Below, in pieces: positions 1-23,603 of a stretch of 64,000 nucleotides of DNA. A program made the position numbers and the translations under genes. The notes beneath the pieces are model-generated. The model was given only the letters and a program-made list of their open reading frames with translations, was not told the origin of the DNA and ran no database searches. Source of the stretch: Candidatus Shapirobacteria bacterium (lineage in GTDB: Bacteria > Patescibacteriota > Microgenomatia > UBA12405); contig JBAZZE010000003.1 of assembly GCA_041658955.1 (NCBI GenBank), forward strand, positions 3,842 to 67,841, given 5' to 3'. The stretch's first letter is position 1; each line of letters begins with the position of its first letter.

Positions 1-1863
1 AGCGATTGGACTGGGAGAATAGTTGTAGAGGTTTTTGACGTCGGTGGCGGATAGGCCACGGTTATAAACACGAACTTCATCCAAACTTCCGCCAAAATAG
101 TAACTTTGGCCAGGGTACATGGTACCTAAATTTAGTGAAGTCCCAGCACCGCCAGTGCGTTCGGTTCCGTAGCATTGACTCATCTCCTGACTTATTCCAT
201 TGATGTAGATTTTACTTTTACCAGTGTAGAGTCCGTTGTACATAACCAGAGTGACATGAACCCATTTGTTGGCTAATCCGGTGGGGTTAATACCGTAAGC
301 ATCGCTGGCACCGGTGTTGAAACCCATACAAGTAGAAATGGGAAACCAAAGTTCATAATAATTACTACTCCCACCGCGAAGGTTGACGGGAATCTTGCCC
401 ACAGTACCGTTCCAATACATCCAAAAACTAACGGTATTGTAACCACCGACGGTGGTGGTGATATTTGGTAAGGTGACACCGATGTAATCATTGGTGTTGT
501 CAAAGCTAGCTCCGATGCCAAACTTACCATTACTCCAAGTAGGAGAAGAGTCGCCGTTGCCTAAAGTAGCAGTACGGTTGTTACCAGAACTGTCGGCAAG
601 TGATGAACCAACTCCTTCGTCGAATTTGTAGTAGGCGATGAGTCCATCAGAAATTCCCTTAGTACTATTACTACCGAAATTTACACCAGAATCTGAAGAT
701 GATTGGCCGGAAATACCAGTGGTGTAATCTTGCTTAATTTGATTAGCAGTACGGGCATATGAGAACACTTTTGTCTCATCAATTTTGGCGTCAGTATTCC
801 AGCCATACATGGTTCCAAAAATTAAGGAACTGCTATTGTTGACACTCCCGGTCACAGAAGAGATGTCGTATTCATTACTTTGTTTGACACCGTTGACATA
901 AAATTTGACTCGATTGTTGGTTTTATCAAAAACCACAGATAACATAGCCCATTTGTTTTTTAGATCGGTGGGTTTGTAACCATTATCAAATGTTATTGAG
1001 GCATTGGTAACTAAATTAGTACCATCGCTATAACAAATGTTGATACCGTTGGCATTGTATCCATGACCAATATCCCATCCTGGGTGACCGGCTGAGTAAC
1101 AAGTGCCAGATTTGTAAGCCATGAACCAAGTCTTAGGATAAGTGAAGTCGCGATAGTTGCCCCACATCTGGACCGTAAAATTGCCGGTATCAAAGTCCAA
1201 TAGGCTATTATCATAGACTGTAACATTGGGGATAGAGGTACCTGGCATACTGACGCATTTTCCAGAGAGACAGTCACTATCTGAAGTCCAAGTGGTATTG
1301 GATGATAAGTAGCCGATTAAACTACGGTCACTACCGGAGTTGTTGATACTAGTACCGACACCTTCATCAAATTTGTACCAAAGAACAGGACCGCCACCAA
1401 TTTCCTCGGTGACGGGGGAACCAATCGAATAACTTGAGGCTACATTGCTAAAGTCGCTGTTACTAAATTCGTTGTCCGCTGAGGAGTTACCATAGTAAGC
1501 ATAGATGGTTTGGGCGCCAGCAGGGAAAGAATCAAAATTGATATGAAATGATACATTGGTTGTGCCTGTGCCTGAGACTATGTAGTAGTCGAGAAGTTGA
1601 CCGGACGCAGTGGTAAAACGAAAGTCGCCATTGTCCGGTTGAGATTTGGCGGTAGTGCCGATGTTGATGGAGGTGCTAATGTAGACGTTGGTCTCATCAA
1701 CTGAGTGGGTGGAGATATTTATCTGTTGACGATACATCCAGGCGTCATTGAACCACTCTGCAAGAATGGTAGTTGGTTTTTGTTGAATTCGAAGGAGAGC
1801 GACAATGCCGATGAGAAGAATAACGACGATAGTAAAGAGTGTTTTGTAAGAGAGGCGGGTCAC
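1..1863 (-). CDS. Giant LamG-repeat surface protein, paralog 1 (C-terminal part runs off window; GTG start inferred at 1863)
   Basis: Reverse-strand translation of 1-120 gives ...GGSLDEVRVYNRGLSATDVKNLYNYSPSPIA, the LamG-type terminal motif shared with the two downstream paralogs. Region 1380-1863 is ~85% nt-identical to 5880-6370. Translation from GTG at 1861-1863 gives VTRLSYKTLFTIVVILLIGIVALLRIQQKPTT, matching the MEKFSYKTLFTIVVILLIGIV N-termini of the paralogs. The frame is consistent at both ends; the ORF is not in the track because it runs off the window and lacks ATG. Confidence 0.55.
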   Translation of the reverse strand, partial: MTRLSYKTLFTIVVILLIGIVALLRIQQKPTTILAEWFNDAWMYRQQINISTHSVDETNVYISTSINIGTTAKSQPDNGDFRFTTASGQLLDYYIVSGTGTTNVSFHINFDSFPAGAQTIYAYYGNSSADNEFSNSDFSNVASSYSIGSPVTEEIGGGPVLWYKFDEGVGTSINNSGSDRSLIGYLSSNTTWTSDSDCLSGKCVSMPGTSIPNVTVYDNSLLDFDTGNFTVQMWGNYRDFTYPKTWFMAYKSGTCYSAGHPGWDIGHGYNANGINICYSDGTNLVTNASITFDNGYKPTDLKNKWAMLSVVFDKTNNRVKFYVNGVKQSNEYDISSVTGSVNNSSSLIFGTMYGWNTDAKIDETKVFSYARTANQIKQDYTTGISGQSSSDSGVNFGSNSTKGISDGLIAYYKFDEGVGSSLADSSGNNRTATLGNGDSSPTWSNGKFGIGASFDNTNDYIGVTLPNITTTVGGYNTVSFWMYWNGTVGKIPVNLRGGSSNYYELWFPISTCMGFNTGASDAYGINPTGLANKWVHVTLVMYNGLYTGKSKIYINGISQEMSQCYGTERTGGAGTSLNLGTMYPGQSYYFGGSLDEVRVYNRGLSATDVKNLYNYSPSPIA

Positions 1864-1882
1864 TAGGATAATCTTACCAATT

Positions 1883-4800
1883 TTACCTAAAATTTACTCC
1901 ACTACCGTTGTAGACAGATTTTATTTGAGTTTCAGTTAGAGCGTAGTTGTAGACGCGAACATCATCGACTTGACCGTCAAGATAGCGGGGTGAGGCATTG
2001 TCTACCCGACCAATATAGAAATTGGCGTTATCAGTGTCGACTACTGAAACGATAGAAGAGGTTTGTTCGGTATTGAGTACTCCATTTTTGTAAAGTCGAA
2101 TATAGCTACCACCTTTGAAGACACCGCAGTAATGATCCCATTGGCCAGTAGTTACTAGACCAGTACTCCCTTCAACACGACCACTAGCGTCTGCTCCGGG
2201 GTCGACTGCGAAACTAACAGTATCACTACGCCCACTAAGGGCGGCACTATCATCGACCCAAAGAAGCCAACCGCCAAGGCTACCAAGATAGCGAGAGACG
2301 ATAGCACCATCGGTAGTAACTGAGGATGGGCGATATTTTAACCAGCTACAGACAGAGGCTTCAGTGGCTCCTTCGATGGTGGGAACTGTCATGCCAATGT
2401 TTATAGAGTCATCGGAGCCATCCAGACTGATAGAGGAATTCATCTTACCACTGGCACCATTGGTCCACGCCGCTGAAGTGCCAACAGAACAAGTGCCAGG
2501 AGTGGTTTGAGATCCTGAAGCACCAACGGTAAGAGTACCGTGATTGGCCAGACCACTCCAGTCAGCGATCTGGGTGCCCTGACATTCGTCCATTTTCCAC
2601 CAACCAGTTGGACCACCATGGTTGTAGTCGTAAGCTATTTGGGCTGGGGTACGGGCATAGTCATAGATTCGAACTTCATCAATAGCACCATTAAAATCAT
2701 CAACTAAGTAGCTGTTTCTGGCATTACCAATAGAGATGTCGTCGTTGTTGGCTATTGAACCAGTGGTTATATCATTACCGGTATTAACTAAAACTCCATC
2801 GACATAGAGATAAGCCTTGTCAGCAGAAAAATCTCTAACCCCGACGAGGTGATGCCACTGACCATTGTTTAATGGGGTTGGTCCGGTAACGTCAAAACCG
2901 GTAACACCATCTCTTAAAGTTATACCAGGTGTCCGTGTAGTCGCAGATAGGTAAAGTCTAAAAGGTGATGCACCACTATTTGTTCCATGTTTGGCCAACA
3001 AACTGTCAGTACTAGCACTAGTATCAGTAGTCTTGAACCAAGTTTCGACTGTATATGAGTTATTATTTCCAATGTCGGTAGTAGTTGTAGTTTCAGCAAA
3101 TCTGATGACACCGTCATTATTGTTAAAGTTAATACCAGAACCAAATTTTCCGAGAATCCAGGTATTAGTTCCTGTCCAGGTTGTACTATCGTTGTTATTG
3201 CCACTAGTATCTTTAGCGCTGGTACCAGCCTTTTCATCCAATTTCCAATTGGCTACTGGTGGACTACAGGGTGATGTGTCACCGGGGACACAGTAATCTA
3301 GACTAGTAGTGGTGGCACCGATAGTTTGATTTGATGAGCCAAAGGTGAAAGAGGAGTTTTGATTGAGGTCTGTTTTGATCTCGTCTTGACTTAGTTGATA
3401 GTTAAATAATTTGAAATCGTCAATCACACCTGAAAAATAGTTGGTGCTATTTTTACCAATGTTGATGGCACTACCAGTCACAGTGGTGCCGATACTGACA
3501 ACTACATGCTGCCAGGTATTATCGGTTAAAGTGCTGGTACTAATACCGTTTATGCTAATAGTGGGCGAGGTAAAACCAGAAGCAAAAAGAGTGTTCCCAG
3601 TGGCGCCAATAGCTACAGTCGGACTAAGGGAAAAGAAGTGGTTGTTGGTTATTCCACTGGGTTTTATCCAAAAGGATACGGACTGAATATTATTTACGGT
3701 GGTACCAACACTAAGATAATCGTTGGCAGAAAAACTGAGTCCTTTATTGTTTTTTCCATCGACCCACGAAGGGGATGAATTACCAGTGGCCAAAGTCCCG
3801 TTTACAGTGCCACCTATACCCCAATTACTGGTGGTTGAGCCGTTACTTTCATCAAACTTGTAATAGATAGCCGGTTTACCGTTGCGTGGTGAGGTATTGG
3901 AATCACCCTGCATGTCTTGAAGAACTTGTTCTTGGGTGCGGGCGTAATTGTAAAGTTTGACATCGTCGATTTTGCCGTCAAAGTCAAAGGAGGCACTGTT
4001 GTTGACGGTGCCAATATAAGTACTGTCAGGTGATGAGATACCAACGGAATAATATGCCGAAATATCTTGTGACTCAATTAGCTTTCCGTCCTGATAAATT
4101 TTGGCTGTACCATTTCGCGAAGCGATAGAACAAATGTAATACCAGTTACCAACTGTTAGGGGGTTGCTTTGAATTTTAACTGTGGTTGCTCCAAGATCCA
4201 ACATAAATTCCATCTGACTCAAGGCATCCCATCGGAGTTCGTAGCCTAAATTTGGAGAGGTATTGTCACGGTGTTCAAAAGCACCGGCAAACTCTGGACC
4301 GGTGGTTTCTGGGTTTAGCCATAGACAGACGGAAAAATCGTTTTTAACCATATCGTGCTCATCACTATCAGGAATGTTGACCCATTGATTACTGCTACTT
4401 TCAAAATCGAGGGCAGATCCAACCTTGCCAGTTATCCAAGTTGGTGAACCGTTAAAAGAAGAGCTGTTGTGACTTTTACCACTACTATCATAGGCGGTGG
4501 TTCCACTTTTTTCATCAAACTTCCAATAGCCAACTGGACCTGGAGCGTAGTTATAGAGATTTTTGACATCAGTAGAGGAAAGCGCGCGGTTATAGAGTTT
4601 GACCTCATCAATAGTTCCTTTGAAGTAATGTCCGGGGTCGGTGGCGTGATGGGTACCAATTCCCCAAGTGCTTGCCTCAGCAGTCCAGTTGCCAGTAGTA
4701 ACATTGCAAGTATTACTTAAAACACCATTAATATAGACTTTTTGAGTTTTGCCATCGGTTGTTCCAATGAGGTGATACCAGGTGTTGGCGGCAAGAGAAG

Positions 4801-6394
4801 TGCTGTAGGAGGTACTACAAACACTGCCTCCGGCAGACCTGAAAAAAGCGACAACTGTACCAGCATCGTTTTGGATATCGAATCCTTCTTCTTGATAATT
4901 TCTCATTATAATCGAGTACCACTCAGTACTTACTGCAGGAATCGAGGACATATTTATCCAAGCAGATATTGTTCCCTTATCTGCTCCTAGTGGAATTACT
5001 TGACCAGTAATGTAGTCGTTTCCACCGAAACTAGTTCCTATACCGAATTTTCCGCCTATCCAAGATGGGGCGGAGGTTCCACTACCAAAGGTTAGTGTCC
5101 GTGAATTCCCAGAACTATCTGCACTTGTTGAACCGACACCTTCTTCAAACTTCCAATAGCCAACTAGTCCATCAGATAAGCCTTTGGCACTATTACCACC
5201 AATATTGACTGAAGAGTTTGCTGAGGATTGGCCGGTATTAGAAGAGGTGAAGTCTTGTCTTATTTGAGTAACTGATCTGGCGTAGGAATATAGCTTTATT
5301 TCATCAATAATAGCGACAATGAAATCTTGGCTATCGGATTCAGAGCCAACCCTAAGACTTTGAGTGTTGACACCAATATCGTTGATATTTCCTAACGTCC
5401 CAGTTTGGGAAGCATTTGATTTGGCACCGTTAATATAAATATCAGTGTTGGAAGTGGAGTTATTGTCAAAAATAATTACGAAGTGTGTCCAAGTATTTGC
5501 GGTGATGGCTGATGTTTTTGTAAGTTGAAATTGATCGGTACCATCAGAAAAATAAACATCCAGTGTTCCGGTGGATGCTAGTCTAATATCGTAACCACTA
5601 GTGCCGGCAGTGGTGGAAGTTTTTTTGGCTAGAATAGTACCGGTGCTTGTCAGGGGACTCCTAATCCAGAGAGAAATAGTGAAGTTGGTGCCATCGGAAA
5701 ATTCTTGAATAGAGTTGTCGCCTAAATTTATATTGTCGTTACCATCAAAAGATAAACAATTACCAGAAATACATTGATCAGAAGTTAGCCAACTGGGTGA
5801 GGAGTTGCCTGTATTTAAGGATCCATTATTGTTTCCAGTTGAAGAATCAAAGGCAGTAGTGCCAGTACCCTCATCAAACTTATACCAAGCCACCGGACCA
5901 CCACCAATTTCTTCAGTAACAGGGGAGCCAATAGAATAACTTGAAGCAACTGTAGAAAAGTCACTATTACTAAATCCGTTGTCGGCAGAGGGGTTACCAT
6001 AGTAAGCATAGACAGTCTGGGCACCAGCGGGGAAACTATCAAAATTGATATGGAATGATATATTGGTTGTGCCTGCACCGGAGACTATGTAGTAGTCGAG
6101 CAGTTGGCCAGAGGAGGTAGTAAAACGAAAGTCGCCGTTGTCAGACTGAGACTTAGCTGTGGTACCGATATTGACTGAAGTACTAATGTAAACATTGGTC
6201 TCACCAACAGAATGTGTAGAAATATTTATAGCTTGACGATACATCCAGGCGTCATTGAACCATTCAGCTAAAACAGAGGTTGGTTTTTGTTGAATTCTTA
6301 TCAGGGCGACAATGCCAATCAGAAGAATAACAACAATAGTGATTAAAGTTTTGTAAGAAAATTTTTCCACTTTATCTAAAGGTTGCTGAACCAT
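1883..6394 (-). CDS. Giant LamG-repeat (Laminin_G_3/concanavalin-like) surface protein, paralog 2; N-terminal TM anchor
   Basis: 1503-aa ORF. It contains about 6-7 repeats of the W[YW]KFDE...D.SG..N.G.L...P.W..G..G.AL.F.G..D.V...(D[DE]V[KR][IL]YN[RY]AL...[EQ][IV]) LamG pattern. It has an N-terminal hydrophobic helix. An alternative GTG start at 6370 would give MEKFSYKTLITIVV, identical in style to paralog 3, and would sit 1 nt after the upstream stop. Confidence 0.7.
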   Translation of the reverse strand: MVQQPLDKVEKFSYKTLITIVVILLIGIVALIRIQQKPTSVLAEWFNDAWMYRQAINISTHSVGETNVYISTSVNIGTTAKSQSDNGDFRFTTSSGQLLDYYIVSGAGTTNISFHINFDSFPAGAQTVYAYYGNPSADNGFSNSDFSTVASSYSIGSPVTEEIGGGPVAWYKFDEGTGTTAFDSSTGNNNGSLNTGNSSPSWLTSDQCISGNCLSFDGNDNINLGDNSIQEFSDGTNFTISLWIRSPLTSTGTILAKKTSTTAGTSGYDIRLASTGTLDVYFSDGTDQFQLTKTSAITANTWTHFVIIFDNNSTSNTDIYINGAKSNASQTGTLGNINDIGVNTQSLRVGSESDSQDFIVAIIDEIKLYSYARSVTQIRQDFTSSNTGQSSANSSVNIGGNSAKGLSDGLVGYWKFEEGVGSTSADSSGNSRTLTFGSGTSAPSWIGGKFGIGTSFGGNDYITGQVIPLGADKGTISAWINMSSIPAVSTEWYSIIMRNYQEEGFDIQNDAGTVVAFFRSAGGSVCSTSYSTSLAANTWYHLIGTTDGKTQKVYINGVLSNTCNVTTGNWTAEASTWGIGTHHATDPGHYFKGTIDEVKLYNRALSSTDVKNLYNYAPGPVGYWKFDEKSGTTAYDSSGKSHNSSSFNGSPTWITGKVGSALDFESSSNQWVNIPDSDEHDMVKNDFSVCLWLNPETTGPEFAGAFEHRDNTSPNLGYELRWDALSQMEFMLDLGATTVKIQSNPLTVGNWYYICSIASRNGTAKIYQDGKLIESQDISAYYSVGISSPDSTYIGTVNNSASFDFDGKIDDVKLYNYARTQEQVLQDMQGDSNTSPRNGKPAIYYKFDESNGSTTSNWGIGGTVNGTLATGNSSPSWVDGKNNKGLSFSANDYLSVGTTVNNIQSVSFWIKPSGITNNHFFSLSPTVAIGATGNTLFASGFTSPTISINGISTSTLTDNTWQHVVVSIGTTVTGSAINIGKNSTNYFSGVIDDFKLFNYQLSQDEIKTDLNQNSSFTFGSSNQTIGATTTSLDYCVPGDTSPCSPPVANWKLDEKAGTSAKDTSGNNNDSTTWTGTNTWILGKFGSGINFNNNDGVIRFAETTTTTDIGNNNSYTVETWFKTTDTSASTDSLLAKHGTNSGASPFRLYLSATTRTPGITLRDGVTGFDVTGPTPLNNGQWHHLVGVRDFSADKAYLYVDGVLVNTGNDITTGSIANNDDISIGNARNSYLVDDFNGAIDEVRIYDYARTPAQIAYDYNHGGPTGWWKMDECQGTQIADWSGLANHGTLTVGASGSQTTPGTCSVGTSAAWTNGASGKMNSSISLDGSDDSINIGMTVPTIEGATEASVCSWLKYRPSSVTTDGAIVSRYLGSLGGWLLWVDDSAALSGRSDTVSFAVDPGADASGRVEGSTGLVTTGQWDHYCGVFKGGSYIRLYKNGVLNTEQTSSIVSVVDTDNANFYIGRVDNASPRYLDGQVDDVRVYNYALTETQIKSVYNGSGVNFR

Positions 6395-9300
6395 TATTTA
6401 TGATGCTTTTAATTTGGGTTTCGGTAAGGAGGTAGCCGTAATAGCGGAAGTCATCAATCTTCCCAGTGGCTTCTTCTGTACCATCACCATTGGAACCAAA
6501 GGCAAGATTATTATTAGTATTGGGAACTGTAAGGTTAGCAGTGCCACCCCAGGAACCAGTTAATAACTTACCATTGTGATAGAGGCGAATGGAGGAGTCG
6601 TCGCCACTAGTGTAAGCCACTGCGTAGTGGTTCCAGGTGCCAACATTGACGACATTTTGATTACCACTATAGCAGTGGACACTGGTATTGACTACACAAA
6701 ATTCTAAGGAACCATCGGAATAAATTTGAGTATACCAACCGTTACCACCGATATTTTTACCAGCATAAGTGTCGTAGGTGCCGGCACCGGGAAGACTGGT
6801 TGGATTAAACCAGTAAGCAATAGAAAAACTGTCGCTTGAACCGATATCGAGTGAGCCTTTGGATTCAGATTCGGTTACGGCAGCTAGGTCATCGTTGCCG
6901 TCAAAATTAAGAGAACCATTGATTTTGCCACTAGCACCGTTGGTCCAAGCAGCTGCAGTTCCACTGTTACAAGTACCAAGAGAAGTTTGAGTACCGGCAG
7001 CACCGATGGAAATGACTCCGGTATAACCTGTGCCCATAGAGTTGTGAATTATGGATCCTTGGCATTCGTCAAACTTGTACCAGACTAGTGGACCGCCTTG
7101 ATTGTAGTCAAGGCCAACTTGGGCAGGAGTACGGACATAATTGTAAATCCGGAGATCGTCAATATCGCCTTTCCAAGGATAGGTGACTCCGGTAGTATGA
7201 GCACCAATAGTGGCTCGAGTCGAGCTGAGGGCACCGGTATAGGCACCGAGGGCGGTATCAGTATCGGTGAGGAGGCCGTTACAATAATGAACCACCTTGC
7301 CGGCGGTTTGATCCCAAGACATAGCTATAAAAATATAACCAGTATCAGTCAGAGCGCAATCAAGACTGGTTTCGTTAGTGGCAGCGGCAGTATAGAGAGT
7401 ATTTAAACTTCCGTCAGAGGCTTTACGAATGGTGATCATATTATTTACATCGGCCCCGATGGTAAGAACTTGATGTTGAACTCCATCTCCCCAGACACCG
7501 TCGCCAACCCTAAACCAGGCAGTGACAGTACCTTGGTTGCCACTAAAAAGGCTAGCAAGATTGGCTGAATAGATATTTATATAATCGTTTGAGCCATCAA
7601 AATTTAGGGCCGAACCGTTTTTACCGGGAACCCAATCGTCACTGGTCATGCTTCCATTGGCAACACCGTTATTACCATTTCCAGAAGTGTCGGGGAGAGT
7701 AGAGGGAGTCCCAACATTGGTATCAAAATTCCATTCACCGATGGGAGCATTACAAAGAGCAGTATCGCCGGGAATACAGTATTTTAGACTGGTGGTAGTA
7801 GCACCAATGGTTTGAACAGTTTGGCCTGATTGAATGACTGAATTGCGATTATAGAGTTGTTTGATTTCATCAGAATTTAGGGCGTAATTGTAGACATTAA
7901 CTTCATCAATTTTTCCGATTGTATAGTTGCCACCAGCGGGCTGAGTACCAATACGAAGATTTTTGGCGTTAGCAGTCATCGTGGTATGGGTGGCTATTGT
8001 ATTAGTACGGTCAACGCCATCAACATAGACTCGGCAGGATGTTCCGGTTTTGGCGGCTACGAGGTGATGCCAAGTACTATCGGCAAGTACATATCCAGTG
8101 GCTGTATAGGTGTCATTAAAACCAGTAGTATTTGCAGTACGACAATAAACTTCGCCAGCATTTCCAATTAGAAGGGCATAACCACCATCACTACTAGCGT
8201 CAGTTTTGGAAATAATATATTCATTGGTACCGCCACTACGAGAGACCCAAGCACTTAGGGTAAAGTCATCGGTAAAATCGAGATAATTATTGTCCGATAT
8301 TTGGACATAATCACCACCATCAAAAGAGAGAGCTTGGTCGGAGCGACCGACAGTCCAGGCTGGGGAGGCGGTGCCAGCGCCGAAAGTACCAGTAAAATTA
8401 TTTCCAGATGAATCGTTGGCTAGAGTGCCGGAATTTTCTTCAAACTTGAGATTGATTATGGGGGTTAATGGTTTGCCATTACCCATGTCTTCCCTGATTT
8501 GGGATTTAGTACGGACATAATTATAAATTTTGACATCATCTAACTGAGCATTGACTGTATTTACAGCAGCTCGTGATCCGATACGTAAGTTTTGACCACT
8601 GCTGGTGATAATAACCATACCAGTAGCACCAGTATCAAGGTGACCGTTGACATACAGACTGGCAGCTCCATCACTGGTAATAGTGGCGCTAAGAAAAGAC
8701 CAAGTGTCGAGGCTAAGAGTATTGGGTGAAGTAAGCTGAAGATAGGTTGAGCCATTGCCGATGCGAAGGCGAGGCGTGCGACTGCTTTGCCAACCTAGTG
8801 AATAACCAGCGTTGTTGTTAGTCCGGTCAATGACATAGACATCTCCTGGTGGGGTATCAAGAGGTCTAACCCAAGCAGAAAGGGTTACATTGCCGGTTAA
8901 GTTGAAATCAGTACTAGTCGACTCCAAATAATCATTGGAGCCATCGAAAGTTCCACCTTTACCGATTTTTCCAACTGAGCCGCCAGTGGGACCGGTACTG
9001 GCAGGACAGGAGCGGAGGTGGTGATCATATCCAGAACTGTCCATCGCGGTATTGGTGGAACAATTATTATTCCAGGAAGCTTCTTCCATTTTCCAATGAC
9101 CGATAGGGCCAGGGGCATAGTTATAAAGAATTTGCATTTCTGAGGGTGATAGGGATCGATTATATAACCTAATATCATCGAGTAATCCCGAGAATTCACT
9201 ACCACTATTACCTCGTCTGCCGATTAGTAGAGAGGTTGTAAGAGCCGTGGGGGCTTGAGTAACATTTGAGTTAAAGTAGCCAGTTTTTACTCCATTAACA

Positions 9301-11627
9301 TAAAAAGTGGCTTTGTTTGTGGCTGAGTTATCAAAAACTACTGCAACGTGATACCAAGTATTGGCAAAGACACTGTTACTTGAAGAACAAACAGAGGCGG
9401 CTTGATTATTTGTTTCGTAACATACTCGACCACCGGCTTGAAGGTAAAAATTGTAAGCGTTGGTTGTGTCACCTGAACCATCTTTGCTTATGATATATTC
9501 CTCACCTGCAGATAGATCATTACTATTGACCCAGGCACTGATAGTGAAATTTGTAGTTACATCAAGGCTATTTGAGTCTACAGCAGTAGCGTAATCCGTT
9601 GTCCCATTGAGTGAAAGTCCAACTCCAAATTTGGAAAGAGTTGACCATTCTGGAGCAGATGAACCGGCGGCAAAGGTAACTGTGTTGGTACCACCCGATG
9701 AGTCGATGACGGTTGTCCCGGTATTTTCATCCATTTTCCACCAACCAACGAGACCATTGGAAAGGGTGTCATTGAGGTCACGACCGACTTTGACACCACT
9801 ATCGGCGTTATAACTGTTTTTTATTTGGGAGTCTGTTCGAGCATAATCGTAAAGTTTAACCTCGTCAATAACTCCCTTAAATGCGGCAGTATTTCCGTCT
9901 GAACCTATTTGGAGATCTGAATTACTAGCGTATAAAGTATCACCACCTGTAGGTAAATTTGAACCACCTGTTAGATTTGAACCATTGACATAAATCTTAA
10001 GACTGGCCCCGTTCCTAACACCAACAACGTGATACCAGGTGTTTTTGGCCATAGTAAAAGTTGTGGGTCGAGTGAAAGCGTTGTAACCGGACCCTGAAGC
10101 GTTCACCCAGGCAAATGTAAACCTATTTTCGCTGGAGGTATAATCAGCTTGGAGTTCATACGATTCCCAAGGACTACCACCGTGTTTTTTCATAATAATA
10201 ACTTCGCGGCCACCGGGGACTTCAGACGGCAAAGCGTGAAGATAGACCCAAGCCTCGACTGACATGTTGGCCGAGGGCCGGAGAATACTATTGTCACCAG
10301 ATTTAGTAAAACGATTTCCAAGACCATCAAATTGAAGAGCATTGTCATATTTCCCTATAGTCCAAGATGGCAAGGTGGTGGAAGTACCGCCGGTTTCAAT
10401 AACGCCATCAAATCGATTAGGGCTAGAGTCATAGGCAGAAGTACCAATATTTTCATTGAATTTCCAATAAGCGACTGGCTCAGTATTATTGTTTTCAGTG
10501 GGTATAGTGGCACTAAAAAATGTAGATGGTGAATTTTGGTTGTTGTGTTCGGTACTGACCCAAGTGGTTGACCGGACGGATTTTGAAACACGAACTTCAT
10601 CGATAAGACCATTGGCGTCTGTTGGCCAAGAAGTAGTGCCACCAAGCATAAAACTGGCTGACGATGAACCGGGATCGACGGTTCGACTAACTTCGGTGCC
10701 ACCAACTGCACCATTGATATACATATAGTCAGTGTCAGATGTAGAGTTGTGAACACCGGTGATGTTGTACCAGGTTCCAGTAGTGACAGAGCCAGCACCA
10801 CCGAAGGTGCCGTATTCACTACCGTTAATATAGCTGATGCCCATACTGGTAGTGTTGTCATAAAAATACCAACCGGTACCATTTTCTTTACCTAACCAAT
10901 CATGCCAGCCTAAGGAGGTAGCTTTGACCCAAAAACTGGCACTAAGATCAGTAACGGTTTGACCGTTTTTGCTGGGAAAGTTGCTACTTAAATTAGTATC
11001 AGTGCGAAAAAGATCTCCTGCTTGAGTAAAACTGGCAGCTGTACCAATTTTACCGGTAGCATTGCTCACTGTTCCGGAAATTGCCAAATGGTTGTTATTG
11101 CTAGTGGAATCATAGCGGGTAGTGCCAACCTCATTTAGATGCCAAACACCAACATAATTGCTGTCCCAAACATTATTTTTACCGAATTCGAAAGCAGCGT
11201 CATAGTCAGTGGCACCGGAATTTCCATAATAAATATAAATAGAGGTGTCGACGGTCGAGGAGAGGGTCCCAGAGTATTTGAAATATAATTCACCAGCATC
11301 AGTGGCAGAATCATAATAAACTACTTCACGAGGTAGCTCGGTAGTGCCATCACTTTTAGTGACTCGAATATCACGAGCATCAGTTTGATTGACATGGGCA
11401 TGAAAATCTGCCGGAAGACTGGCGAGACTTACTAGGATAGGAAAATCAGTTTGGTCGGCAGAAACCTTGGTGTGGTCTATGGTTAGCATTAACCGATTGG
11501 TCCAACCAGTGTGATACCAAGCGGCTTCAACTGTGGTTGGTTTAGTTTGGATGCGAATTAAAACGACAATTCCAATCAGCAAAATTACGACAATGGTAAA
11601 CAGGGTTTTATACGAGAACTTTTCCAC
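6372..11627 (-). CDS. Giant LamG-repeat surface protein, paralog 3 (GTG start); N-terminal TM anchor
   Basis: 1751-aa ORF starting at GTG (plus-strand CAC at 11625-11627). N-terminus MEKFSYKTLFTIVVILLIGIVVLIRIQTKPTT. Repeated WKFNE/WWKMDE/HWKMEE ... DEV[KR][LV]YNYA[RL]T...I LamG-like units. The C-terminal ...LTETQIKSIINNGSATFR is shared with paralog 2. Confidence 0.7.
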   Translation of the reverse strand: MEKFSYKTLFTIVVILLIGIVVLIRIQTKPTTVEAAWYHTGWTNRLMLTIDHTKVSADQTDFPILVSLASLPADFHAHVNQTDARDIRVTKSDGTTELPREVVYYDSATDAGELYFKYSGTLSSTVDTSIYIYYGNSGATDYDAAFEFGKNNVWDSNYVGVWHLNEVGTTRYDSTSNNNHLAISGTVSNATGKIGTAASFTQAGDLFRTDTNLSSNFPSKNGQTVTDLSASFWVKATSLGWHDWLGKENGTGWYFYDNTTSMGISYINGSEYGTFGGAGSVTTGTWYNITGVHNSTSDTDYMYINGAVGGTEVSRTVDPGSSSASFMLGGTTSWPTDANGLIDEVRVSKSVRSTTWVSTEHNNQNSPSTFFSATIPTENNNTEPVAYWKFNENIGTSAYDSSPNRFDGVIETGGTSTTLPSWTIGKYDNALQFDGLGNRFTKSGDNSILRPSANMSVEAWVYLHALPSEVPGGREVIIMKKHGGSPWESYELQADYTSSENRFTFAWVNASGSGYNAFTRPTTFTMAKNTWYHVVGVRNGASLKIYVNGSNLTGGSNLPTGGDTLYASNSDLQIGSDGNTAAFKGVIDEVKLYDYARTDSQIKNSYNADSGVKVGRDLNDTLSNGLVGWWKMDENTGTTVIDSSGGTNTVTFAAGSSAPEWSTLSKFGVGLSLNGTTDYATAVDSNSLDVTTNFTISAWVNSNDLSAGEEYIISKDGSGDTTNAYNFYLQAGGRVCYETNNQAASVCSSSNSVFANTWYHVAVVFDNSATNKATFYVNGVKTGYFNSNVTQAPTALTTSLLIGRRGNSGSEFSGLLDDIRLYNRSLSPSEMQILYNYAPGPIGHWKMEEASWNNNCSTNTAMDSSGYDHHLRSCPASTGPTGGSVGKIGKGGTFDGSNDYLESTSTDFNLTGNVTLSAWVRPLDTPPGDVYVIDRTNNNAGYSLGWQSSRTPRLRIGNGSTYLQLTSPNTLSLDTWSFLSATITSDGAASLYVNGHLDTGATGMVIITSSGQNLRIGSRAAVNTVNAQLDDVKIYNYVRTKSQIREDMGNGKPLTPIINLKFEENSGTLANDSSGNNFTGTFGAGTASPAWTVGRSDQALSFDGGDYVQISDNNYLDFTDDFTLSAWVSRSGGTNEYIISKTDASSDGGYALLIGNAGEVYCRTANTTGFNDTYTATGYVLADSTWHHLVAAKTGTSCRVYVDGVDRTNTIATHTTMTANAKNLRIGTQPAGGNYTIGKIDEVNVYNYALNSDEIKQLYNRNSVIQSGQTVQTIGATTTSLKYCIPGDTALCNAPIGEWNFDTNVGTPSTLPDTSGNGNNGVANGSMTSDDWVPGKNGSALNFDGSNDYINIYSANLASLFSGNQGTVTAWFRVGDGVWGDGVQHQVLTIGADVNNMITIRKASDGSLNTLYTAAATNETSLDCALTDTGYIFIAMSWDQTAGKVVHYCNGLLTDTDTALGAYTGALSSTRATIGAHTTGVTYPWKGDIDDLRIYNYVRTPAQVGLDYNQGGPLVWYKFDECQGSIIHNSMGTGYTGVISIGAAGTQTSLGTCNSGTAAAWTNGASGKINGSLNFDGNDDLAAVTESESKGSLDIGSSDSFSIAYWFNPTSLPGAGTYDTYAGKNIGGNGWYTQIYSDGSLEFCVVNTSVHCYSGNQNVVNVGTWNHYAVAYTSGDDSSIRLYHNGKLLTGSWGGTANLTVPNTNNNLAFGSNGDGTEEATGKIDDFRYYGYLLTETQIKSIINNGSATFR

Positions 11628-11640
11628 AACTAATTATAGT

Positions 11641-12048
11641 CTAGTAGAACACCACTTTGACGGTTTGGGGAAGGTTTTGTTGGTTGTTACTGGCAGTGAT
11701 AGTTGCTTTTAGGGCAGTGTTAGAAGACAGGTCAAAAACTGCTTTACCTGTATCATCAGTGGTAGTTTGAACTGAGGTAATAGAAACTTTAGGGGAGGAA
11801 GTAAGGCTAACTGTTTGGTTGGGGACACCTAGACCTCGACCATCAAGTAAAAAAACGGTAACCCGAATTTGTTCTTTACCATCAGCTTTGGCTTGGAGAG
11901 GAGAAGAAAAAAGATAGGAATTACCATATGCAACTGAGCTACTACTGCCAGCAGCCCGACCCAAGAAAATAGTGGTACGAAAAACAAGAGCAAGTGAAGC
12001 TAGGAGAGTGAGAAGTAAAAAAATAATAATGACAATCGGTCGGCGCAT
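11641..12048 (-). CDS. Small secreted/anchored Ig-like hypothetical protein
   Basis: 135-aa ORF with N-terminal signal/TM (MRRPIVIIIFLLLTLLASLALVF). The remainder is Ser/Thr-rich and beta-strand-like. It sits 13 nt upstream of the LamG paralog 3 start. Confidence 0.4.
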   Translation of the reverse strand: MRRPIVIIIFLLLTLLASLALVFRTTIFLGRAAGSSSSVAYGNSYLFSSPLQAKADGKEQIRVTVFLLDGRGLGVPNQTVSLTSSPKVSITSVQTTTDDTGKAVFDLSSNTALKATITASNNQQNLPQTVKVVFY

Positions 12049-12051
12049 ATA

Positions 12052-12870
12052 TTAGAGTATAGGGTATCTGGTAAGTGGATAGTAAAAAACCGCCGGTAAA
12101 TATCGAGGTTGAGCGGTAGGGTGAAGGTAAAGATAAAGAAGATAAGCAAAAAGTAAAACTGTGCTAAGAAATAAAGGAACAATAATTAAGATGTTAAATT
12201 GTTGAGGTAGGCTATAGGTAATGGTATTGGATTTGGGACTAGCTAGAGTAGCAAAATCAACGGTACTAAAAAGTCGATAATCACTACTGAGTGAGGTAGG
12301 AATATTAAGATTATAGTTACCGTTAATATCGGTTTTGGTAGAAAATACCGGTAATCCAAAAGCTTGGGCTGGAACTGGAAGAATAGGAGCCTTGGCGTTG
12401 GTTTGGTAGAGGAAGACATTGATAGTTGAAAAAGGAATGCTTTGTCCTGAGGCGGCAGTAGTACTGTTGGCTTTTATGGTTTCCGAATCGATAGTGATAG
12501 TGGGAGGGAGAATAATTGGTCCAATATTGGTGAGATAGTTGGTATCAGGTGGGGGTGGAACACAGACTGGGTTGGTGTGGCGGAGGTCATCATCGACTGC
12601 TAAGAGGCATAATTCTCCCGGATTTCTAGGAATAATGATGCGATCGAACTCGAAGTAGCCATTTTCCTTGGCATAAGTAACATCATAGACTTTGGAACTA
12701 CTCAATTCGACTCGAGCTAGGGGAGAGGTAAAGCCATAAATGGCAACTCGACTTTCTTCAATTGAACCAGAAACGGTGACTCCCTTTTGAGCTGAAGAAG
12801 CGGCAACACTTAGATGTGGGGAAAAGGTACCAACAATTAAAGTGAAGGCTGCAAAAAAATATTTAAGCAT
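12052..12870 (-). CDS. Surface protein with CnaB/carboxypeptidase-regulatory-like beta-sandwich motifs and C-terminal TM anchor
   Basis: 272 aa. Signal peptide (MLKYFFAAFTLIVGTFSPHLSVAASS). Motifs GYFEFDRI and TDINGNYNLNIP are typical of CnaB/CarboxypepD_reg folds. C-terminal hydrophobic segment LIIVPLFLSTVLLFAYLLYLYL. Confidence 0.4.
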   Translation of the reverse strand: MLKYFFAAFTLIVGTFSPHLSVAASSAQKGVTVSGSIEESRVAIYGFTSPLARVELSSSKVYDVTYAKENGYFEFDRIIIPRNPGELCLLAVDDDLRHTNPVCVPPPPDTNYLTNIGPIILPPTITIDSETIKANSTTAASGQSIPFSTINVFLYQTNAKAPILPVPAQAFGLPVFSTKTDINGNYNLNIPTSLSSDYRLFSTVDFATLASPKSNTITYSLPQQFNILIIVPLFLSTVLLFAYLLYLYLHPTAQPRYLPAVFYYPLTRYPIL

Positions 12871-12888
12871 TAATTAATTGTACACAGA

Positions 12889-13869
12889 TTAGCGATCTTT
12901 GTACTTTTTCTTCAAGGCTTCTAGCTCTTTCTCTAGTTCTTCGACTTGACCATCATCTTCATGTTTTGGTGCGGGCTGTTGACGTCTAACTAGGGTGTAG
13001 ATGACATAAGCAAGAATGAGAGCGGTGATGACTAGAGCAATTAGTCTCCATGGTATTACCCAGAAGAATAGAGTAGCAGAGATAGCTTGACCGGTAGTGC
13101 CATAACCAGCATTGAGAGTGGCAGTGTAACGTCCAAACAGCCATTTACGATTGAGAGTGTTTTCAAATCCACGAGCGGTGTTGGGGAAAATATTGGTAAG
13201 GTTAAGGGGGAGATCGGCAGTCTTACCACCGAGCCAGTTTTTGATAGCGATGCTTCCGGCGGGGGTGACATGAATATCGGAAAGATTAGCAACAATAGTT
13301 TTAAAATTAATTGGTCCAAATTCGGAAAAGCCTGGTGCAGAAAATTCAGTGACACGAGCGTCTTCTTTAATATCACCTGGTACAGTGATGTAGATCAAAG
13401 TACCGACATTAGTTTCGATAAAAGAACCGGTTTCAGTAAGTACGGATTCGTTTTTGGGACTGTGGAGAATCATAGAATAATGTCCACCGGAAAGTGCATC
13501 GTCAGGAGCAATTATGGTCATCATGATGGATCTGGTTTCACCGGGTTTTAGGCGAAAACTAGTGGGTGAGAGATGGATCCAGGAAGAAGCAGCCCAACGA
13601 TTACTGCTTTCGTCAAGATTTTCAAGTTGGAGTGGAGTACCTTCACTATCAGTAACGATAAAGTCTTTGCTGGTAGTGGTGATAACTCTTTCAGTCTTGG
13701 ATTCGTTACGGATTTTTAGTTCTTTAGTGACGGTTTCGCCGGGTTTGAGGGTAACTTCGAGTCGGGGAGGAATAGCACTAAGACCAGTAGCTGATTGAGC
13801 CTGAACATTAGTAGTGGTAAGTAATGAACTTCCGAAAAGAATTAGTAGGGGGAGGATTATTTTTTTCAT
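12889..13869 (-). CDS. DUF916/DUF3324-like (WxL-interacting-type) cell-surface protein with C-terminal TM anchor and charged tail
   Basis: 326 aa. Signal peptide. N-terminal segment LSAIPPRLEVTLKPGETVTKELKIRNESKTERVI, then WIHLSPTSFRLKPGETRSIMMTIIAPDDALSGGHYSMI; this resembles the DUF916/DUF3324 pattern of Firmicute Csc loci. C-terminal TM (WRLIALVITALILAYVIYTLV) followed by KHEDDGQVEELEKELEALKKKYKDR. The call is pattern-level only. Confidence 0.4.
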   Translation of the reverse strand: MKKIILPLLILFGSSLLTTTNVQAQSATGLSAIPPRLEVTLKPGETVTKELKIRNESKTERVITTTSKDFIVTDSEGTPLQLENLDESSNRWAASSWIHLSPTSFRLKPGETRSIMMTIIAPDDALSGGHYSMILHSPKNESVLTETGSFIETNVGTLIYITVPGDIKEDARVTEFSAPGFSEFGPINFKTIVANLSDIHVTPAGSIAIKNWLGGKTADLPLNLTNIFPNTARGFENTLNRKWLFGRYTATLNAGYGTTGQAISATLFFWVIPWRLIALVITALILAYVIYTLVRRQQPAPKHEDDGQVEELEKELEALKKKYKDR

Positions 13870-13870
13870 T

Positions 13871-15355
13871 TTAGAAGGTGGCAGTCGCTGTATAAACTAA
13901 TTTACTTTCATAATTACCAGCTCCTTGGGTGGTTGAAGCGGTAGCTCGGTAACAAACATAGGCTCGTTCAGTAGCAGAAGGAGTGGTGACATTTTTCATA
14001 ATTTCTTTAGCATTAGCAGTACCGTTTCCAAATGGTCGATAACCAGATTGATAGTTGAAGATGGTTGTACCAACATTTATGTTGTGCATGGTGTAACCCC
14101 AACCGGAAGCGGTATAGGTACTCCATAGAGCAGGAGTGGTAGTGGTACAACCGGCACCATTACAATCGGTATCAGGAAGGGTGTCTCCATCGGCAATATT
14201 TTGCATGGGACCATCTTCATAGACAGTGACCACATAACCATTATTAGCATTGGTGACACAAGAAAGTCGTTGGGCCAGATCGTTGGGTCCGGCTAGGACA
14301 AGAGAACCATAGGCCACGGCGGTAGCGGTAGTATTACCGGCATTTGTACCGAAGGCTGAAAGTCCACAGGGGGTAGCACCGACACCGACTCCGGTGGCAT
14401 CGATGATAAAGGTAAGAGTTGGGTCAATAGTAGCAGTCACCCGAACTGACTCGACAACTGCGATTTTACCTTGGGCAGTATCAGCGTCGATTACCAATGA
14501 ACCACTATCTAGGTGTCTGACATAGAAAGTGTAGACATCAGCATTTCCTTCAAAAGCGACCGTGTGGTTGGGAGAAGGATTGATAAGCTGGCTACCGGTG
14601 GCTAGGTCAGCTCCAATGGCCATAGAATAGCCAACACCGACTTGGTTGGTACCACCAACTCCGAGGTAACAAGAGATAATGTGATAAGAACTACCATTAA
14701 CAACTGTGGTTGTGCCAACACTATAAGCAGTGGTAACCCCAATTCCCCAGTTGGGACAGGTAACGTCAGTGACTTTTAGCCTTGTGCCCAGACCATTGGC
14801 GGTTGAAGATGGAGTAGTAGCACCAAGATCAAAACCATTTTGATCGGGAATACCATCGTTGTAAAGTTCACCAGTAGAGCTGGTAGCTTTGAGTAAGAAT
14901 TGCCAAAAACCGCCAGCAGCGTTTGATTGGGGAGTAAGACTAATAGTGTGAATAGCGGAACGAGTAGCAATAATGGCAGCGTTGATGAAAGCATTGCTTT
15001 GACCAATAGCGGTGTTTAACTCGATAGTTTGAGTATTACCAATGTCTTGAACGACATATTTAGTGAGAGGTCCGCTGATACCAACTCCAACTCCAGTGGT
15101 ACCAATGGCAATAGTATCGCCGACAAAAAGGTTGTTGGTAGTATTGCTAGGTAGTCCAGTGCTACCAACTTTAATGATGGAATCTCCAGTAGTAATAGGA
15201 GCGCTAATTCGGCCAAAATAAGATAGCTGAGAATTACTTAAAGTATCCTTGACAGAAGATGGTGGAAGAGAGCGGACTTTTTGTGGTTTAAAAATAGCAA
15301 ATGTACCAAAAGCTACCAACAAAATGGGTACTAAAATAACTAGTCGTCGTTTCAT
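13871..15355 (-). CDS. Secreted Thr/Gly-rich surface protein with WxL-like C-terminal motif
   Basis: 494 aa with an N-terminal signal/TM and Thr/Gly-rich beta-strand-like sequence. The C-terminus YRPF..(TVP)..STTQGAGNYESKLVYTATATF is homologous to the C-terminus of the 20477..21211 protein (YRPF...STTQAAGSYQSAIIFTAVPNY). This resembles the Y...L.W.L...P WxL motif with W replaced by F/Y. The stop is 1 nt from the start of the DUF916-like gene. Confidence 0.4.
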   Translation of the reverse strand: MKRRLVILVPILLVAFGTFAIFKPQKVRSLPPSSVKDTLSNSQLSYFGRISAPITTGDSIIKVGSTGLPSNTTNNLFVGDTIAIGTTGVGVGISGPLTKYVVQDIGNTQTIELNTAIGQSNAFINAAIIATRSAIHTISLTPQSNAAGGFWQFLLKATSSTGELYNDGIPDQNGFDLGATTPSSTANGLGTRLKVTDVTCPNWGIGVTTAYSVGTTTVVNGSSYHIISCYLGVGGTNQVGVGYSMAIGADLATGSQLINPSPNHTVAFEGNADVYTFYVRHLDSGSLVIDADTAQGKIAVVESVRVTATIDPTLTFIIDATGVGVGATPCGLSAFGTNAGNTTATAVAYGSLVLAGPNDLAQRLSCVTNANNGYVVTVYEDGPMQNIADGDTLPDTDCNGAGCTTTTPALWSTYTASGWGYTMHNINVGTTIFNYQSGYRPFGNGTANAKEIMKNVTTPSATERAYVCYRATASTTQGAGNYESKLVYTATATF

Positions 15356-15697
15356 TAATTATTGAACAAAATTTGCCTAATAATTAAAGATATGTCCTAT
15401 TTAGACTTGTGTCAATGGGTGGGTAGTCTTTATATAGTGAACTTTCCCACCCATTTTGTAAGTAATATAGTAGTAGTTAAGACAATTATTAGTTTTTTCG
15501 AAGCTATTTTATCTTTTCTCGATGTAAATCGAGAATAAAATCAAAATTGGTACAGTTTTTTTATTAAGAAAAATATGCTTTCGGTCCGGTGGACACTGGA
15601 CTTCATCAGCCCCGATAAACGGGATAGCATGACCACCTCCAGGGGATTCTCAAAAATCGAGAATTTACCCTAGGGGTGGAGAGCGTGTAGAGGAGGA

Positions 15698-16165
15698 TTA
15701 ATTGCCGGGGAGATAGTAGTAGAGATCGTCAACGATTTTGTCGAATTCGACATCTATTTCCATCGTGGACTGATCACTGTCGTAGTACTTCGGGTCGTAA
15801 TGCTCGACATCAACATCAGCAAGGATGTGCCATTCATTGTTGTCGCATACGTAACCGAGAGTAAACGAGTACCACCAGTCTTCCTGTTCCCAGTAGATGT
15901 CCCGGGAAGTGCTGTGGGCCAACTGTCCTTGTTCTTCCAGAGGAGTAACGAAGGTGCTGTAGGCATAAGTGTCCGCCGTCTTGGTTTCGAAGATGACGAA
16001 CAAATGATGCCCCAGCCAGTTGATGCCAAAAGCAGCGGCAAAAACGGCGGCAACCAGAATTACCTGGCGCAGAGACAAGCGGATCTCGGACAATTTCTTG
16101 GACATGGGGGGTCTCCTTATTGATGGTTGTATCTGAAAACTCGTGAGAGCTTTTACAGATTTCAA
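15698..16165 (-). CDS. Hypothetical membrane protein (likely start at internal Met, 16105)
   Basis: ORF in a visibly more GC-rich segment. Internal MSKKLSEIRLSLRQVILVAAVFAAAFGINWLGHHLF has a TM helix. The rest is a Trp/Tyr-rich acidic domain with no recognisable family. Confidence 0.35.
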   Translation of the reverse strand: MKSVKALTSFQIQPSIRRPPMSKKLSEIRLSLRQVILVAAVFAAAFGINWLGHHLFVIFETKTADTYAYSTFVTPLEEQGQLAHSTSRDIYWEQEDWWYSFTLGYVCDNNEWHILADVDVEHYDPKYYDSDQSTMEIDVEFDKIVDDLYYYLPGN

Positions 16166-16220
16166 CCATCAATATTTACACGCTAATTTTTAAAGAACTG
16201 ACGGATGGTTTATCGCAATG

Positions 16221-16244
16221 ATAAAAATCCGCCTTACAAAAGGC
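16221..16244 (-). terminator. Putative intrinsic terminator downstream of 16355..17356
   Basis: Minus-strand GCCTTttgtAAGGC followed by GGATTTTTAT. The adjacent perfect 16-nt palindrome CCCGAAAGCTTTCGGG (16254..16269) and the long imperfect inverted repeat CCGAACCCCTCC...GGAGGAGTTCGG (16288..16345) were also seen. Confidence 0.4.
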
Positions 16245-16354
16245 AGTTTTAACCCCGAAAGCTTTCGGGACTAAAAAACCTTTCCGAACCCCTCCCAAAC
16301 AAAACAAACAAATACATGTTTGCCGTGTTTGAGGAGGAGTTCGGTGAATAGGTT

Positions 16355-17356: not shown

Positions 17357-17644
17357 GTTATCCTCCTCAGGATAGGGTTGGGGGTTGTGACAGTAAACCT
17401 AGCGGTTTGCTGGATTCAACCTCCAACCTTTTGTCTTTTCCTAAAACCTATTTGTTAATGTGCTCCTTCGACTCTTAGTTAGTCGCTCAGGATCTTCGAC
17501 CTAATTGAATGAGTAGCAAACGCAATGTTCGTATCTTCCAATTAAGTTAAGGTTATTATCTTATAATAGAGAGTTATATTCAGGACTTTTGAGAGACAAA
17601 AAACGGACAAAAGGGAGACATTTAGGTTTGTGTTATAGTGAGGT

Positions 17645-19641: not shown

Positions 19642-19643
19642 GT

Positions 19644-20474: not shown

Positions 20475-20476
20475 AT

Positions 20477-23580: not shown

Positions 23581-23603
23581 TCGCTATTTGTAACAAATAT
23601 TTT

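Follow-up and report, generated by a model that had tools for sequence, protein, structure and literature searches.

What kind of cell-surface machine is encoded by the seven consecutive minus-strand genes that run from position 15355 down to position 1 of a Candidatus Shapirobacteria contig (JBAZZE010000003.1), in the 64,000-nt window analysed here? The listing and translation of open reading frames (ORFs) confirm this layout, with intergenic gaps of 1, 18, 3, 13, 1, and 19 nt along the string, and the first-pass annotation was also right in placing it in a small-genome host, which is a bacterium of the Candidate Phyla Radiation (CPR). That annotation regarded the string as a hitherto undescribed type of locus, a possible attachment apparatus in which a WxL/DUF916-type anchoring module is joined to giant LamG-repeat proteins. 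A surface apparatus with LamG arrays in a CPR host is what we find as well, but its core has been described: it is most likely a divergent version of the CPR pam pilus operon, known from a 2026 preprint and from NCBIfam models, and not a novel locus type. The string from 15355 to 11641 most likely holds one half of the Pam core, and the genes from 21854 to 19644 hold the other half. We consider it likely that the region as a whole is a Microgenomatia-type Pam pilus system with attached adhesin genes.

The Pam pilus is known from two filaments of Ca. Mycosynbacter amalyticus (Saccharimonadia) that were solved by cryo-electron microscopy (cryo-EM) (bioRxiv 10.64898/2026.03.03.709456). Its pilins PamA, PamB, and PamE consist of a beta-sandwich N-terminal domain and a truncated Ig-like C-terminal domain, joined by a linker; this linker, one of the best conserved regions, is the strand donated to the next subunit. 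PamT is a single-domain tip pilin, PamR is a C-terminally anchored terminator, and PamC and PamD are PapD/FimC-like chaperones with C-terminal transmembrane (TM) helices; there is no usher. Homologues have been reported only in CPR, chiefly in Saccharimonadia and Microgenomatia, and the PamA homologues of Microgenomatia were found by a language-model search only, at ~21% identity (bioRxiv 10.64898/2026.03.03.709456).

We compared the locus with 77 loci of GTDB species representatives and four fetched earlier, 81 in total (L001 to L081). Hydrophobic segments, signal-peptide-like N termini, and TM helices were taken from a hydrophobicity scan, which placed signal-peptide-like N termini on the 494-, 326-, 135-, and 244-aa proteins and C-terminal TM helices on the 326-, 272-, and 276-aa proteins. 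The link to the Pam family comes from the 244-aa protein, residues 4 to 244 of which align with positions 4 to 241 of the 241-position NCBIfam model NF058579 (CPR_pilus_PamT) at an E value of 3.6e-12. It also matches NF058581 (Pam pilus system pilin subunit; E = 2.1e-5), and both models are matched by 45 of its 46 orthologues, with best E values of 1.9e-14 and 2.1e-11, respectively. The C-terminal domain of the 494-aa protein (approximately residues 314 to 494, 180 residues) is 26% identical to the 244-aa protein (E = 2e-17), and 22 of the 37 orthologues of the 494-aa protein match NF058581. Within the window, this Pam-type domain is found only in these two genes. Pfam assigns no family to the 494-, 272-, 244-, and 276-aa proteins, and the named orthologues of the 494-aa protein are all "hypothetical" proteins from metagenome-assembled genomes (MAGs) of Shapirobacteria, Woesebacteria, and other Microgenomates-group or Patescibacteria lineages. 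An AlphaFold2 (AF2) model of the 494-aa protein has two all-beta domains, with a predicted local distance difference test (pLDDT) score of ~88 in the C-terminal one. The protein thus looks like a two-domain pilin of the CPR Pam family.

The linker between the two pilin domains (residues 298 to 312) holds the second most conserved 12-mer of the protein, with a mean conservation of 0.88 versus 0.70 in either domain. V304, V306, A308, and I310 alternate with polar residues, and residues 303 to 311 are unplaced in the AF2 monomer (pLDDT < 50). A conserved, alternating linker that finds no place in the monomer fits the expectation for a donated strand. In some genomes, a further copy of the two-domain pilin gene stands apart from the main operon (L016, L028, L038, and L045), away from any chaperone or anchor gene; L028, for instance, belongs to the same genome as L007. 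This suggests that such lone genes encode additional pilin variants served by the main operon.

The locus encodes two PapD/FimC-fold proteins with a C-terminal TM helix, the combination that marks PamC and PamD. These proteins of 326 aa (chaperone 1) and 276 aa (chaperone 2) are similar over their full length (21% identity, E = 2e-6). Chaperone 1, initially described as DUF916/DUF3324-like, matches the solved Enterococcus WxLIP structure and, in a moderately significant profile comparison with hhalign, 99 columns of the DUF916 domain of WxLIP (85% probability, E = 5.9e-6). The C-terminal helix and charged tail are confirmed, and a database protein from a Shapirobacteria MAG shares the sequence of chaperone 1 at 100% identity. 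Structure and profile support the first part of that description, although the match to Pfam WxLIP_PGBD (DUF916, PF06030) reaches only 16.1 bits (E = 0.012) against a cut-off of 27.3, and DUF3324 is not matched. A profile search of the whole library gave a chaperone superfamily of 9,788 representatives (50% identity clusters) at E ≤ 1e-3, and the best 150 of these 9,788 matches all have E ≤ 1.6e-48; the search gave no bridge to the WxLIPs of Firmicutes. The very large size of this superfamily makes the machinery a major, barely described feature of these bacteria.

Two features of the chaperones stand apart from the published model. The cytoplasmic helix that follows the TM helix of chaperone 1 (approximately residues 300 to 326) is strongly conserved as KVEELEKELExLKKKYQDRK, and L312, L316, L319, K320, K322, Y323, and D325 are invariant in 38 chaperone sequences. 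The conservation hints at regulation or at an interaction partner in the cytoplasm, and the published Pam model offers no explanation of it. The chaperone 2 orthologues without a signal peptide belong to the Shapirobacteria/Woesebacteria clade; distant orthologues in L059, L062, L065, L069, L074, L075, and L081 have one. The 276-aa protein has a beta domain of ~240 aa that would have to be exported. We considered and rejected a fusion of chaperone 2 to the PamT-like protein by read-through or frameshift: orthologues have stop-start gaps anywhere from -1 to 8 nt, in varying frames, which makes such a fusion unlikely.

By position and architecture, the 272-aa protein is apparently the counterpart of the PamR terminator, with a TM helix at residues 221 to 251 and, judging from its sequence and weak Pfam matches, apparently two small beta domains. 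It had been called a CnaB-like anchor. The anchor stands; no Cna_B domain was found, and the nearest hint is a set of weak CarboxypepD_reg matches in 20 of its 39 orthologues, none of which extends to the window protein itself. Five of the 39 also match the transthyretin-like domain of NOMO (best E = 5e-6). The next gene encodes a small Ig-like protein, as originally proposed, with a Pfam Big_1 domain (E = 7.9e-17) and a hydrophobic segment at residues 1 to 30. At the other end of the core, the 218-aa polytopic membrane protein has no family match in Pfam or NCBIfam and is a candidate assembly platform or regulator. This type of protein is absent from the preprint's description of the Pam system; it shows faint similarity to the HisKA region of ArcB (E = 0.025).

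Gene order in relatives joins the two halves. In most of the 77 loci the order is polytopic membrane protein, PamT-like protein, chaperone 2, pilin, chaperone 1, anchor, and Big_1 protein, without interruption (e.g., gene starts at 7768, 8300, 9025, 10001, 11534, 12532, and 13218 in L009). The chaperone 2 gene abuts the pilin gene in most relatives (9025/10001 in L009), the anchor gene directly follows chaperone 1 in 49 of the 81 loci, a Big_1 gene occupies the corresponding position in ~38 related loci, and the polytopic gene lies directly upstream of the PamT-like gene in ~50. That the seven core genes form one operon in most relatives is therefore strongly supported. In the window, the halves are separated by 4.3 kb (15356 to 19643) of unrelated ORFs, and in the closest relatives, L001 and L006, other inserts occupy this junction between chaperone 2 and pilin. 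The insert is not part of the pilus system, and the junction may be an insertion hotspot. Since the halves are contiguous in most relatives, the gene pair at 19644 to 21211 is the tip-pilin/chaperone half of the same machine. The first-pass annotation had interpreted it as a duplicate of the pilin/chaperone 1 pair; the paralogy is real (E = 2e-17 and E = 2e-6), but the pair is the other half of one operon rather than a second copy of a module. A promoter-like site in the AT-rich intergenic spacer upstream of the pilin gene is the top consensus match (10/12) between 11000 and 22500, and this consensus match marks a probable start of the transcription unit (Table 1).

Table 1. Features of the pilus locus and the adjoining giant genes; all positions are in the numbering of the 64,000-nt window.
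Feature	Position	Strand	Description
Promoter-like site TTGACA-17-TATCTT	15387..15415	-	Lies 32 nt before the start codon of the pilin gene
Two-domain Pam-type pilin, 494 aa	13871..15355	-	Signal peptide, N-terminal beta-sandwich, linker, C-terminal Pam-pilin-like domain
Interdomain linker of the pilin, residues 298-312, IAVVESVRVTATIDP	14420..14464	-	Candidate donor strand
PapD/WxLIP-like chaperone (chaperone 1), 326 aa	12889..13869	-	Signal peptide, two beta-sandwich domains, TM 262-296, charged cytoplasmic helix
C-terminally TM-anchored protein, 272 aa	12052..12870	-	Apparent PamR counterpart by position and architecture
Big_1 (invasin/intimin-type Ig) protein, 135 aa	11641..12048	-	N-terminally anchored; last gene of the pilus core
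LamG giant A, 1751 aa	6372..11627	-	GTG start; N-terminal TM/signal anchor, DUF2341, 7 Laminin_G_3
LamG giant B, 1503 aa as longest ORF	1883..6394	-	Probable GTG start at 6370, giving 1495 aa
LamG giant C, partial, 621 aa in the window	1..1863	-	GTG start; runs off the window start
PamT-like single-domain (tip) pilin, 244 aa	20477..21211	-	NCBIfam NF058579
Second PapD/WxLIP-like chaperone (chaperone 2), 276 aa	19644..20474	-	C-terminal TM 245-272, without N-terminal signal peptide
Polytopic membrane protein, 218 aa	21198..21854	-	Several hydrophobic segments; overlaps the PamT-like gene by 14 nt
4.3-kb insert	15356..19643	.	Minus strand, ORFs of 155 and 333 aa; plus strand, ORFs of 312 and 353 aa

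Downstream of the Big_1 gene lie the three giant genes. As annotated, each giant has LamG units behind a single N-terminal hydrophobic helix. Pfam finds seven Laminin_G_3 stretches in giant A (E = 6.7e-151) along with DUF2341 (E = 3.1e-6), DUF2341 and seven Laminin_G_3 stretches in giant B (E = 1.8e-122), and DUF2341 and two Laminin_G_3 units in the partial giant C, so that both complete proteins fit the DUF2341/LamG giant architecture of an N-terminal DUF2341 followed by tandem Laminin_G_3. Giants A and B are 32% identical. Giants B and C are 84 to 90% identical over their first ~150 aa (TM leader and DUF2341) and 24 to 46% identical over most of the rest, and at the DNA level positions 1350 to 1649 (giant C) repeat positions 5857 to 6156 (giant B) with 81% identity; giant A has only the leader in common with them. 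The B/C pattern may stem from a recent tandem duplication after which the lectin arrays diverged rapidly, or from gene conversion that affected the 5' module. It is what a conserved module for anchoring or targeting, followed by lectin arrays that diverge fast, would show. No Pam-type (pilin-like) domain is present in the giants. Against the NCBIfam model of TafC (NF052521), they score 199.5, 146.2, and 39.3 bits, under the cut-off of 410, and the alignment covers the LamG part only (positions ~150 to 370). A type IV prepilin-like leader on the giants was rejected by inspection, as no G|F...E motif is present.

Among 45 informative species, those whose loci include enough downstream sequence, a LamG giant on the same strand lies within 1.5 kb downstream of the core in 11 and within 6 kb in 5 more. 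The pilins of the 11 species with immediate adjacency are 35 to 82% identical to the window pilin. The slot after Big_1 is taken in L003 by a 645-aa SpaA/CarboxypepD_reg-like protein, in L004 the gene string ends there, and in the sister genome, the closest relative, it holds one giant of 1372 aa, compared to three here. The LamG giants thus fill a recurrent, optional adhesin slot after the pilus core, and the coupling of anchoring module and LamG proteins, previously regarded as an undescribed combination, is neither unique nor obligatory. The 1- to 19-nt gaps on one strand indicate that the giants are most likely co-expressed with the pilus genes; most likely they are co-transcribed, N-terminally anchored or secreted lectin-type adhesins.

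Several observations weigh against a Pam pilus system with attached adhesins. To our knowledge, no filament has yet been seen in any member of the Microgenomatia. All NCBIfam Pam matches fall far below the curated cut-offs, orthologues included: the 244-aa protein scores 46.2 bits against the PamT equivalog cut-off of 240 and 24.6 bits against the Pam_pilin_C cut-off of 55, and the 494-aa pilin itself returns nothing against NF058581 at E ≤ 10. Fold searches with the pilin gave generic beta-sandwich matches with low TM-scores from a PDB library without PamA and PamB, and no relevant match came from sequence searches of PDB, for which the pilin, the PamT-like protein, the chaperone, and its profile served as queries. 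An N-terminal hydrophobic segment is missing, by the hydrophobicity scan and not by SignalP, from the 276-aa chaperone and ~40 of its 49 orthologues, and a second chaperone without a signal peptide does not fit an extracytoplasmic chaperone. The 272-aa anchor is weakly transthyretin-like instead of having the RbmA-like fibronectin type III (FnIII) fold reported for PamR. No ATP synthase genes occur among the window ORFs scanned, a neighbourhood that the preprint calls typical. For the adhesins, a LamG gene is absent within 6 kb in 29 of the 45 related species, and the role proposed for the giants is suggested by gene adjacency only.

The first-pass description of the secreted protein as WxL-like would instead make the locus a WxL/Csc-type, non-filamentous surface complex, with the 494- and 244-aa proteins as large and small WxL-like wall binders next to a WxLIP-like membrane protein and with the LamG giants on display. 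In Firmicutes, such clusters encode a small WxL protein, a large WxL protein, a WxLIP (DUF916-DUF3324-TM), and an LPXTG protein; the WxL domain of the large protein is C-terminal, and AlphaFold inserts a strand of the DUF916-DUF3324-TM protein into it (PMC9772566, PMC10599100; PDB 9i1y). This logic closely parallels that of Pam, with the difference that WxL proteins are regarded as peptidoglycan binders and Pam subunits are pilins. For the comparison, WxL clusters were taken from Enterococcus gilvus, E. innesii, and Listeria plasmid records, using a DUF916 N-terminal consensus purely as a retrieval device, and alignments of eight WxL domains and three WxLIPs were used in hhalign. The WxLIP resemblance of the anchored partner is real. 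For the secreted partner, PF13731 gives no match at E ≤ 1 with the 494- and 244-aa proteins or with their 37 and 46 orthologues, and Pfam and NCBIfam find no WxL, Cna_B, or DUF3324 domain in the window proteins. The hhalign comparison of the Pam C-terminal domain with WxL is not significant either (E = 0.097 to 0.22, probability < 1%, untrimmed and trimmed), and both Trp-x-Leu motifs are missing, with Y/F-x-V/I/A in their place. The best path, although not significant, is co-linear across the whole domain and pairs conserved blocks, namely "LSFxIdxLxIxFG" with "LSIDFASSLDFG", "sTPsgxGYqI" with "VTDNRGTxxGWTL", and, at the C terminus, "AGxYqnxIxFTAvP" with "YxTTLTWxLxDxP". The anchor here is a TM helix in place of LPXTG and sortase: no LPXTG motif is visible in the 272- and 135-aa sequences, and no sortase was seen in a scan of the string that was not exhaustive. 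The host is a CPR bacterium and not a Firmicute, and the homologous M. amalyticus family forms filaments seen by cryo-EM. We therefore consider a WxL/Csc-type complex improbable. The WxL resemblance of the secreted partner is an interesting possibility, and it would be wrong to classify the locus as a WxL cluster; the 494- and 244-aa proteins belong, at scores below threshold, to the Pam pilin family.

The giants allow two other explanations. They may be independent neighbours, common CPR surface proteins that landed and were tandemly duplicated downstream of the pilus operon. DUF2341-bearing giant proteins are indeed frequent in Patescibacteria (PMC11809585), and the 29 species without a nearby LamG gene, the variable slot (a different protein in L003, empty in L004), and the single giant of the closest relative all agree with chance arrival. 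The spacing of the genes speaks against it, as gaps of 1 to 19 nt on one strand leave no space for a separate promoter or terminator, and so does the recurrence of immediate adjacency in 11 species with such divergent pilins. We regard independent neighbours as a minority possibility. Alternatively, the giants could be physical parts of the pilus, with an N-terminal module that donates a strand to the C-terminal domain of a pilin, serving as alternative anchors or as adhesins attached to the fibre. This would account for the TM leader common to all three, for the high identity of the DUF2341 module of giants B and C beside divergent lectin arrays, and for the N-terminal ~190 aa being the best conserved part (46 to 51% identity in L026 and L055 versus ~30% elsewhere), and the joining of a LamG adhesin to a donor-strand fibre has a precedent in TafC of the haloarchaeal tafi (PMC11821415). 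The giants have no Pam-pilin-like domain, however, and their sub-threshold match to TafC spans the LamG part only, which makes a structural role in the fibre very unlikely. The preferred explanation is still a Pam pilus operon followed by an adhesin slot.

By analogy with the cryo-EM and AlphaFold results on M. amalyticus, such a system would work as follows. Pilins would be exported by Sec, and the membrane-tethered chaperones would cap the open C-terminal Ig-like domain of every pilin. The PamT-like protein would nucleate the tip, and the 494-aa subunits would polymerise as linker 298-312 of one enters the C-terminal domain of its neighbour, until the 272-aa TM-anchored protein stops growth and ties the fibre to the membrane. 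After pilus contact, the giants would bind glycans on the surface of the host cell.

The locus shares with the described Pam system a CPR lineage, a pilin of two domains (the C-terminal one of Pam type) with a conserved linker between them, a PamT-like single-domain pilin, two PapD-fold proteins with C-terminal TM helices, a C-terminally anchored protein, and the lack of an usher or other trans-envelope machine in the string. It differs in coming from another class (Microgenomatia) with sub-threshold sequence similarity, in having a single major pilin instead of PamA, PamB, and PamE, in adding a conserved polytopic membrane protein as first and a Big_1 protein as last gene of the core, in its second chaperone (no signal peptide) and anchor (transthyretin-like, not RbmA/FnIII-like), and in showing no ATP synthase neighbourhood and LamG giants in the same string. 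In contrast to chaperone-usher pili (Pap/Fim, Csu, and CFA/I), the host has no outer membrane, the chaperone is membrane-tethered, an additional N-terminal domain is present in the pilin, and strand donation would fall to an internal linker and not to an N-terminal extension; no usher family match (Pfam and NCBIfam) was found among the genes in 1 to 21854. Like the system proposed here, the tafi combine a donor-strand fibre, no outer membrane, an associated LamG domain, and a membrane protein (TafF) that terminates and anchors the fibre (PMC11821415). Unlike the giants of 1500 to 1750 aa with seven LamG units and DUF2341, TafC, at 38 kDa, combines a single LamG domain with a pilin-like domain of its own, and tafi are exported by Tat and not by Sec.

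The parallel with WxL clusters leads us to a tentative proposal: Pam pili and WxL/Csc clusters might be two branches of one ancient monoderm system, in which PamC and PamD correspond to WxLIP and the Pam C-terminal domain corresponds to the WxL domain. In such a system, a tethered PapD-fold protein may complement and hand over subunits with an open beta domain, and in the Microgenomatia variant the LamG giants would be exchangeable adhesin cargo. Common ancestry, if true, would mean that WxL proteins may polymerise or dock by donor-strand exchange, beyond simple peptidoglycan binding, and that chaperone-assisted strand-exchange fibres are older than the outer-membrane usher. The text of the Pam preprint mentions neither WxL nor DUF916 (bioRxiv 10.64898/2026.03.03.709456), and our literature searches found no paper joining WxL with pili or CPR. 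The structural match between the chaperone and WxLIP ties together two literatures without mutual citation and bears on the role of WxL clusters in gut Firmicutes.

CPR bacteria are thought to live attached to hosts by means that are largely obscure, and it was not until 2026 that the Pam pilus was recognised, in a single cultured species of Saccharimonadia. The Pam system itself was thus already described; new here is a divergent Microgenomatia variant with LamG giants in the same string. The locus gives a sequence-anchored picture of the Microgenomatia version as a widely conserved seven-gene core with a variable downstream slot that often holds giant lectin arrays, which makes hypotheses on host recognition testable.

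Further observations concern other genes in and around the locus. The minus-strand 155- and 333-aa ORFs of the insert encode secreted or membrane proteins; on the plus strand, the 353-aa protein has a P-loop-like motif (GKT), and the 312-aa protein has a weak Trans_reg_C match, the sole Pfam match of the insert. Divergent from the PamT sub-operon, 21874 to 24606 on the plus strand encodes ComEA (SLBB and HHH_3), a protein with the ComEC "Competence" domain, and a protein of the metallo-beta-lactamase fold. DNA-uptake genes adjoin the pilus operon in L003 and L004 too and are conserved neighbours in the group. They are followed on the plus strand (24675 to 31880) by a giant of 2401 aa that combines Kelch and FN3 repeats with a purple-acid-phosphatase N-terminal-like domain; the Woesebacteria locus L004 has a 2370-aa protein of like Kelch/FN3 content at the same relative position. 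Downstream of the core, L001 (18039 to 21485), L003 (14980 to 19883), and L004 (13707 to 21527) carry a second Big_1 gene in reverse orientation, a short Phage_int_SAM-like ORF, and a giant, which in L004 has 3190 aa and Peptidase_S74. This giant is probably the "tail fibre-like protein" that the preprint lists as a conserved neighbour, and the equivalent region of the present genome would fall beyond position 1. Finally, many GTDB species-representative records with this CPR operon (L008, L016, L018, L019, and many other loci) bear the title "uncultured Gammaproteobacteria" or "Pseudomonadales," and "Candidatus Methanoperedens" appears once; such MAG names are evidently placeholders or wrong.

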